A stretch of 64,000 nucleotides of DNA. It comes from Escherichia coli. GTDB lineage: Bacteria; Pseudomonadota; Gammaproteobacteria; Enterobacterales; Enterobacteriaceae. The notes below the pieces were generated by a model. That model searched no databases. It was not told the origin of the DNA and was given only the letters and a program-made list of their open reading frames with translations. Position 1 is the stretch's first letter. Each line of letters opens with the position of its first letter. This document shows positions 20,351-21,884 of this stretch, one piece after another. The stretch lies in assembly GCF_050320075.1 (NCBI RefSeq), contig NZ_CP190018.1; one strand, 5' to 3'. Made by a program: the position numbers and the translations under genes.

Positions 20351-20369
20351 GCCTGATAAGACGCGTCAA
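20351..20369. repeat. left half of a REP/palindromic unit interrupted by the IS element
   Basis: gcctgataagacgcg + tcaa; the matching half gcgtcgcatcaggc lies at about 21806..21819 across the IS. Confidence 0.7.
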
Positions 20370-20401
20370 TGAACTGAACCCCAAAACCTGGACAGTTTCA
20401 G

Positions 20402-21124
20402 TTAACCGGCTTTTTGATGCTCAGTCCGGTATTCTACCGGACTGAGTCCCCCAAGACTGAGTTTTATTCTTTTTTGATTCCAGTAAGTTATGTATTCGTT
20501 AACGGCATTTTCCAGCTCTTCTACATTTCTGTAGTCCCGGCGATAGTAAATTTCTTCTTTCAGGTGACCAAAGAAATTCTCCATTACCGCATTATCAAGA
20601 CAGTTGCCCTTGCGCGACATGCTCTGCACTAACCCTTTGTCTGCCAGGTCAGACTGATAACTTTTTATCCGGTAATGCCACCCTTGATCACTGTGGAGCA
20701 GCGGTTTTTCTCCTTCTGCAAGGCTTTCCAGCCCCTTATTTAACATGCGCTTCACCAGCTCCTCTGTAGGCCTGCAGGCAGTTTCCCACGCCACGATTTC
20801 CCCGTTAAACAAATCAAGTATCGGGGACAGGTACAGTTTTTGTCCGCCAGCCCTGAATTCGGTGATATCTGTCACCCATTTCTCACAGGGAGCTTCCGCT
20901 TTGAACTGCCGCTGAAGGATATTTTCTGCAGCGAGTCCCATATTTCCCCGGTAAGACCGGTATTTCTTCAGGCGCACAGGAGACTTCAGGCCGAGCTGTT
21001 GCATCAGTTTTCGCACTGTTTTGCCACTGAACTTAAGACCTCTTTTCTGAAGCTCACAATGGATCCGCCGGTACCCATAACATCCCCGGTGTTCATGGAA
21101 GATGGAGGCTATGAGCTGTTTCAC
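20402..21124 (-). CDS. IS3-family transposase orfB (DDE integrase core); likely expressed as an OrfAB fusion by -1 frameshift
   Basis: 240-aa ORF with rve-type integrase core; its frame stays open upstream of the first Met toward the slippery site. Confidence 0.85.
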   Translation of the reverse strand: MKQLIASIFHEHRGCYGYRRIHCELQKRGLKFSGKTVRKLMQQLGLKSPVRLKKYRSYRGNMGLAAENILQRQFKAEAPCEKWVTDITEFRAGGQKLYLSPILDLFNGEIVAWETACRPTEELVKRMLNKGLESLAEGEKPLLHSDQGWHYRIKSYQSDLADKGLVQSMSRKGNCLDNAVMENFFGHLKEEIYYRRDYRNVEELENAVNEYITYWNQKRIKLSLGGLSPVEYRTEHQKAG

Positions 21125-21228
21125 ATCAGCATACTTGTCCTTAGCCTTCTGCAGTGACAGCTGGTAGTACAGCGTGCTTCTGGCCAGCCCTGCAGCCTTT
21201 AACAGGTCAGACTGGCAGTGTCCGCACC

Positions 21229-21759
21229 TCAGGCTCCGGATGACTTTCGTTTTTTCTCCAGCTCCTGGCGCTTTTTTTCCAGGAGATGCTCCTGCATGGC
21301 TTTCAGATATGCATTTTCTGCGCGAAGATAACGTAGCTCATTCTTCATCTCTTCCGGCGTCATGTTTGCCTCGTTTTCATGGGTATCATCAGAACGGGTC
21401 ATGCTTTTCTCCTTCCTGCGCCTGATAAAGGCCTCATTACCAGATTTGCGGTAGCCTTTTATCCAGTTTTTAACCGTGTTGTGGCTGGGAATGTTAAACC
21501 GGGCAGCTACCCGGGGTAGAGACTCAGAATGCCCGAGAGCATAAAGAACCACGCAAAGTTTATCTTCAGGAGAATAGCTACGCTTGTGTCTGCAATCCAG
21601 TGCCCGAGGACCGTGAAGAAGAAAAAGATTAATCCAGTGTGAGAGGCTGGTGTGAGAAAGTTGAAAGAGTTTTGCCGTAGAAATGATGCCTGCATGACCA
21701 GCCAGGTAATGATTTACAGCGGCAAGTTTTACTTCAAATGAATGTTTCATAAACTGCAC
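21229..21759 (-). CDS. IS3-family transposase orfA (HTH plus leucine-zipper region)
   Basis: 176-aa ORF; A AAA AAG frameshift motif at about 21271..21279 (minus-strand ctggaaaaaaagcg) near its 3' end. Confidence 0.85.
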   Translation of the reverse strand: MQFMKHSFEVKLAAVNHYLAGHAGIISTAKLFQLSHTSLSHWINLFLLHGPRALDCRHKRSYSPEDKLCVVLYALGHSESLPRVAARFNIPSHNTVKNWIKGYRKSGNEAFIRRRKEKSMTRSDDTHENEANMTPEEMKNELRYLRAENAYLKAMQEHLLEKKRQELEKKRKSSGA

Positions 21760-21884
21760 CTTCAGATGTCAGATTATGTCCAACATTTGGGGTGCAGTTC
21801 ATCAAGCGTCGCATCAGGCGCTGAATGTCGGATGTGGCGTGCAGCCTACAAATCACACAAATTCAACTCGTTACGAGTATCCCG

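Follow-up and report, generated by a model that had tools for sequence, protein, structure and literature searches.

IS3-family insertion sequences transpose by a copy-out-paste-in route. One of them, IS1397, has been described since the late 1990s, together with its preference for the loop of REP sequences, also called palindromic units, and its transposition was reportedly shown experimentally by Clement et al. in 1999. ISKpn1 is said, from the work of Wilde et al. in 2003, to be restricted to one palindromic-unit type of Klebsiella. The transposase of IS621 is of the DEDD type, and this element has neither terminal inverted repeats nor a target-site duplication of the IS1397 kind. IS150 resembles the element described here in length and has a 173-aa OrfA and the frameshift site A AAA AAG; it is not known to target REP sequences specifically.

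The passages of PMC1525189 on these elements refer to Bachellier et al. 1997, Clement et al. 1999, and Wilde et al. 2001 and 2003 for IS1397. They report insertion into the loop of palindromic units (citing Clement 1999, Wilde 2001 and 2003) and place the choice of that loop in the transposase (citing Wilde 2003). The same paper describes two further elements with this kind of target: ISKpn1 of Klebsiella pneumoniae (IS3 family), which targets palindromic units, and IS621 of E. coli (IS110 family), which inserts specifically into REP sequences (PMC1525189). IS150 is 1443 bp long and appears as a separate element from IS1397 in one and the same genome table (PMC6963479).

In this study, an insertion sequence was analysed in a 64-kb window of Escherichia coli DNA (the window being the whole stretch of 64,000 nucleotides). 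Window positions 20370..21801 are almost certainly a full-length, apparently functional copy of IS1397 (IS3 family, IS150 subgroup). The insertion is already known: its place between ygcQ and ygcP and its target-site duplication TCAA have been tabulated for an ST38 genome (PMC6963479). Its significance beyond correct annotation is small, apart from two uses given below.

Anatomy of the element and its target site

The end analysis showed an IS3-family insertion sequence with a length of 1432 bp. The element starts, on the 20370 side, with TGAACTGAACCCCAAA, and its other end is the reverse complement of TGAACTGCACCCCAAA. The terminal inverted repeats read TGAACTG[A/C]ACCCCAAA, so that the ends are TG...CA (TGAACTG...CAGTTCA). 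They matched at 15 of the first 16 nt, and the pair reaches 26 nt at 85% complementarity. Within the 64-kb window the inverted-repeat pattern occurs at two places only, the ends of the element (chance expectation 0.08), and a second copy looked for by this pattern across the window was not present. The element is flanked by a 4-bp duplication, TCAA. Imperfect terminal inverted repeats ending in 5'-TG...CA-3' and a target duplication of 3–4 bp are traits of the IS3 family, and both were found here.

A 3-bp duplication with shifted boundaries was also considered, and the complementarity of the inverted repeats does reach one base further out on each side. The flanking triplets would then be TCA and CAA, which are unequal, and this reading was rejected. 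The 1432-bp element with TCAA is the sole consistent boundary reading, and it agrees with the published table (PMC6963479). The coordinates of all features are collected in Table 1.

Table 1. Features of the insertion and its surroundings, in window coordinates.
Feature	Position	Strand	Basis
ygcQ, convergent neighbour; 3' end 48 nt from the palindromic unit	19442..20302	+	RefSeq at identical locus, ORF list
Left half of split REP/palindromic unit, GCCTGATAAGACGCG	20351..20365		Read directly; 12/14 complementary to 21806-21819
Target-site duplication copy 1, TCAA, the loop of the palindromic unit	20366..20369		Read directly; single TCAA in empty sites
IS1397 (IS3 family, IS150 subgroup), 1432 bp	20370..21801	- (transposase strand)	Identity, ISsaga and PGAP naming, transpos_IS3 profile
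Terminal inverted repeat, transposase-distal (IRR), TGAACTGAACCCCAAAACCTGGACA	20370..20394		Inverted-repeat and end analysis
orfB frame (-1 relative to orfA), open to stop at 20402; OrfAB fusion 449 aa	20402..21277	-	Translation, Pfam, catalytic residues
orfA, 173 aa, open; two tandem helix-turn-helix domains	21229..21750	-	ORF and Pfam HTH_28
A AAA AAG slippery heptamer for programmed -1 frameshift	21271..21277	-	Phase checked; RefSeq 'programmed frameshift' annotation
Predicted RNA hairpin: element tip and flanking bases pair with orfA ribosome-binding region and AUG	21746..21805	-	RNA folding
Terminal inverted repeat, transposase-proximal (IRL), reverse complement TGAACTGCACCCCAAATGTTGGACA	21777..21801		Inverted-repeat and end analysis
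Target-site duplication copy 2, TCAA	21802..21805		Read directly; TCAA/TCAA published for identical 28Eco12 copy
Right half of split REP/palindromic unit, GCGTCGCATCAGGC	21806..21819		Read directly; complementarity; K-12 comparison
ygcP, convergent neighbour; 3' end 65 nt from the palindromic unit	21885..22460	-	RefSeq at identical locus, ORF list
Intact palindromic unit with the same arms, loop TGA, for comparison	28290..28321		Arm search

Removal of the element and one TCAA restores the palindrome GCCTGATAAGACGCG-TCAA-GCGTCGCATCAGGC, which is 33 nt long with arms complementary at 12 of 14 positions. The two halves are contiguous in K-12 MG1655 and in strain 5CRE51, and the unit of K-12 MG1655, GCCTGATAAGACGCGTCAAGCGTCGCATCAGGC, is identical to the restored one, with a single TCAA. 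The restored unit lies between the ygcQ and ygcP stop codons, and its arms recur in the intact unit of Table 1 and at other insertion loci. Thus it has the traits of a REP sequence: an extragenic imperfect palindrome of about 30–35 nt with the motif GCC[T/G]GATGCG.CGC...GCG.CTTATC[A/C]GGC, present in many copies.

The empty site was reconstructed from 300 bp on each side with one TCAA kept (600 bp) and was searched in 5426 complete E. coli genomes. It was identical at 600 of 600 positions to the ygcQ-ygcP region of strain 5CRE51 (NZ_CP021175.1, 2538863-2539462), and the uninterrupted site was found in 4814 genomes of this collection. Since these 600 bp are 100% identical to the flanks in the window, strain 5CRE51 is very closely related but lacks the insertion, and it would offer a natural control.

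The preliminary description, made from the sequence alone, had placed a 1432-bp IS3-family element with a tcaa duplication at 20370..21801, and the inverted repeats and the duplication bear it out exactly to the base. It had also proposed insertion into the loop of a REP sequence that becomes a near-perfect palindrome on excision, and had suggested comparison with the empty site of K-12; the restored unit and the single TCAA of K-12 agree with that proposal. The intact REP of the same type that it reported at 28285..28323 was found as well, with the slightly narrower boundaries of Table 1.

Other palindromic-unit-like sequences were observed in the window. Sequences resembling internally deleted Y-type units, GCCGGATGATCCTGCCTACGG and TGTCGGATGTGGCGTGCAGCCTACAAA, lie at about 20309-20333 and 21825-21853. 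Because these Y-type-like remnants flank the Z-type target unit on both sides, the target is apparently part of a degenerate BIME and not a lone REP; K-12 has the remnants too. The arm census also gave palindromic-unit-like arms, GCCGGATGCGACGC and CGGCTTATCCAGC, at 50144-50175 on the minus strand, which are probably a further REP in the window.

Seven further copies of the element, from five other intergenic regions, were fetched from other genomes and their ends were aligned. The target rule was the same throughout: all eight copies, in six intergenic regions, split a palindromic unit in its loop with a duplication of 3–4 bp, which is the reported behaviour of IS1397. The duplicated bases were GCCA and GCA in rrf-kgtP (28Eco12 and MS20653, respectively), GTCA in ssuB-pepN, ACA in znuB-ruvB (ST131), TCAC and GTT in nlpE-yaeF (copies L005 and L006, respectively), and AAA in cbpM-torD. 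They lie 12–15 nt from either end of the palindromic unit. Both Z-type (GCCTGAT...) and Y-type (GCCGGAT...) units were used, and one of the eight copies has the opposite orientation relative to the unit.

Two of these regions have a history of their own. In nlpE-yaeF, two genomes have IS1397 in the same Y-type unit, with the insertion points 3 bp apart (TCAC versus GTT), and L005 and L006 are two independent insertions into one unit. In rrf-kgtP of MS20653 (locus L008), a frameshifted IS110-family transposase gene (437-1403 of L008) adjoins the IS1397 copy. As IS621, a member of the IS110 family, also targets REP sequences, two unrelated elements with REP specificity may have struck this REP cluster.

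Coding capacity, distribution and mobility

All coding sequence of the element is on the minus strand. Translation and a phase check upheld the earlier proposal of an intact orfA, an A AAA AAG site and an intact orfB. Two overlapping consecutive reading frames joined by a -1 frameshift at a motif of this type are a family trait of IS3 elements, and this arrangement is predicted here from the sequence. In RefSeq, the identical gene is a CDS in two pieces, marked 'programmed frameshift' and not as a pseudogene. The OrfAB fusion matched the NCBIfam profile NF033516 (transpos_IS3) with 383.9 bits, above the curated cut-off of 160, over profile positions 1-369 of 369. Its Pfam domains are HTH_28 (twice), HTH_21 and the rve catalytic core, the last at residues 286-384 (E = 4e-20). 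The catalytic triad consists of D295, D355 and E391 with a 35-residue D-E spacing, and K398 stands at E+7, which is the integrase-like core of the family (DD(35)E plus K/R). The two HTH_28 matches in OrfA, at residues 8-57 and 64-113, form a duplicated DNA-binding module within this 173-aa protein.

RNA folding downstream of A AAA AAG gave no significant frameshift-stimulating structure, as the fold was no better than that of shuffled sequences (z = -0.61). A local 10-bp inverted repeat was considered as a stimulator and rejected, because the heptamer falls in its loop and not upstream of its stem. The 3' end of orfB contains, at 20420-20446, an inverted repeat of 12 bp without mismatches and with a 3-nt loop (CTCAGTCCGGTA ttc TACCGGACTGAG). 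It encodes LSPVEYRTE and might, on either strand, stabilise an RNA 3' end or terminate transcription.

From what is known of the family, OrfAB would be made by -1 ribosomal frameshifting at A AAA AAG. It would drive copy-out-paste-in transposition, recognising the hairpin of a palindromic unit, integrating into its loop and duplicating 3–4 bp. At this locus, the element would have entered the TCAA loop of a Z-type unit between the convergent ygcQ and ygcP. What the sequences display directly is the outcome of such a process: the inverted repeats, the target-site duplication, the exact empty site and the recurrent target. Because the coding capacity is intact, transposition competence is plausible.

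The ygcQ-ygcP site is occupied in 284 of the 5426 complete E. coli genomes (about 5%), including the ST38 strain 28Eco12. Occupancy was scored with a left-junction query of 150 bp of flank and 150 bp of element, covered in these 284 genomes. The best match to this query was at least 99% identical in 288 records, about the number of occupied sites. Junction identity this uniformly high suggests that the carriers inherited a single ancestral insertion. Across the collection, places of the element were chromosomal in 7610 cases and on plasmids in 7. The first use of the insertion is as a clean presence/absence marker with an exactly defined empty site.

The element might also be an immobile relic whose structure is intact but which has ceased to transpose and is simply inherited in one lineage. 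The essentially invariant junction in the 284 carriers is consistent with vertical inheritance, simple scans detected neither a promoter nor a frameshift stimulator, and two other copies, L006 and L008, are annotated as frameshifted pseudogenes. In the window element, however, both reading frames, the slippery site, the DDE triad and both inverted repeats are intact. Copies 99.58% (L002) and 99.51% (L003) identical to it stand at other sites with target duplications of their own, which points to recent movement of this isoform, and the transposition experiments attributed to Clement et al. also argue against loss of mobility. We consider the relic unlikely and a functional copy of IS1397 the better reading.

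Neighbouring genes and transcription

No gene is interrupted by the element, which stands on the 3' side of both ygcQ and ygcP. The preliminary description was right that it separates two convergent genes, ygcQ ending at 20302 on the plus strand and ygcP ending at 21885 on the minus strand. Transposase and ygcP share a strand, and transcription of the transposase leads away from ygcP. RNA folding predicted a hairpin at the ygcP-side end of the element, whose arms in the minus-strand RNA are 21805..21791 and 21760..21746 (centroid -27 kcal/mol, z = -3.63; none of 200 shuffles folded as well). Its 5' arm belongs only to transcripts begun outside the element; here, transcription from ygcP would meet this strong hairpin, which covers the orfA start. 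We infer that this hairpin would block translation of the transposase from read-through RNA, as in other insertion sequences.

The sole plausible effect on the neighbours is that the ygcQ and ygcP mRNAs lose the REP hairpin at their 3' ends. We see only a small chance that the split of this shared hairpin measurably changes the stability or termination of the ygcQ and/or ygcP operon mRNA in the carrier lineage (284/5426), to which transposase read-through antisense to ygcQ could add. If it did, the poorly characterised ygcQ-ygcP gene cluster would have a lineage-specific expression phenotype. The second use of the insertion lies here: the occupied and empty sites form a natural allele pair for testing the role of a REP hairpin in two convergent mRNAs.

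A different effect had been proposed earlier, namely that outward transcription from the element, or read-through, could alter ygcP expression. Insertion sequences can drive neighbouring genes, and the hairpin split here stands 65 nt beyond the ygcP stop codon. The geometry is nevertheless wrong for this proposal. Outward transcription into ygcP does not fit, because the element is 3' of ygcP and its co-directional transposase is transcribed away from that gene; read-through from the element would run antisense to ygcQ, at its 3' end, and not to ygcP. A scan for sigma-70-like promoters, including outward-facing ones, over 20150..22050 on both strands gave none at the scan threshold. Such an effect on ygcP is improbable.

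Identity and comparison with known systems

Many complete E. coli chromosomes contain all 1432 bp of the element at 100% identity. Among these identical copies is the one at the same site in strain 28Eco12 (ST38; NZ_CP038505.1, 1214273..1215704). In Table 1 of PMC6963479, ISsaga names 28Eco12 1214273..1215704 as IS1397 (IS3 ssgr IS150) with the duplication TCAA/TCAA, and these coordinates also span 1432 bp. The RefSeq product name that PGAP gives for the transposase at that same junction is 'IS3-like element IS1397 family transposase'. The nlpE-yaeF copy of strain 83972 (L006) is 97.97% identical to the window element, and its flanks match, bar one base, the CFT073 nlpE-yaeF site that is called IS1397 and shown in Additional file 13 of PMC1525189. 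Copies across the genome collection differ from the window element by up to about 5%, and on this sequence comparison it is regarded as one isoform within an IS1397 family.

The name IS1397, which the preliminary description had given, rests on the two third-party annotations (ISsaga and PGAP), with L006 as a proxy for the type entry. Whether the best ISfinder match might be another insertion sequence was answered through these same proxies, in favour of IS1397. A different IS3-family element that resembles IS1397 (e.g., ISKpn1-like or IS150-like) and sits in a REP by coincidence is hardly credible: for many identical copies the PGAP label is no more specific than 'IS3 family transposase', but ISsaga and PGAP name the identical sequence and the same junction IS1397 and IS1397 family, respectively, the length is 1432 bp, and 8 of 8 copies in six intergenic regions lie in palindromic-unit loops, so the target is no coincidence.

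Compared with the known REP-targeting systems, the window element, read as IS1397, shows no structural differences from IS1397 of Escherichia coli. It has the same 1432 bp, the same orfA and orfB with A AAA AAG, the same 3–4-bp duplications and the same insertion into palindromic-unit loops, and it is likewise almost exclusively chromosomal. ISKpn1 belongs to the same family and has the same kind of target, the palindromic-unit loop, but it has another host; the copies examined here use both Z-type and Y-type units, as reported for IS1397. IS621 also targets REP sequences, but the transposases are unrelated, and the window element has a DDE rve core, inverted repeats and a target-site duplication. 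IS150 of E. coli belongs to the same subgroup as the window element and is listed separately by ISsaga.
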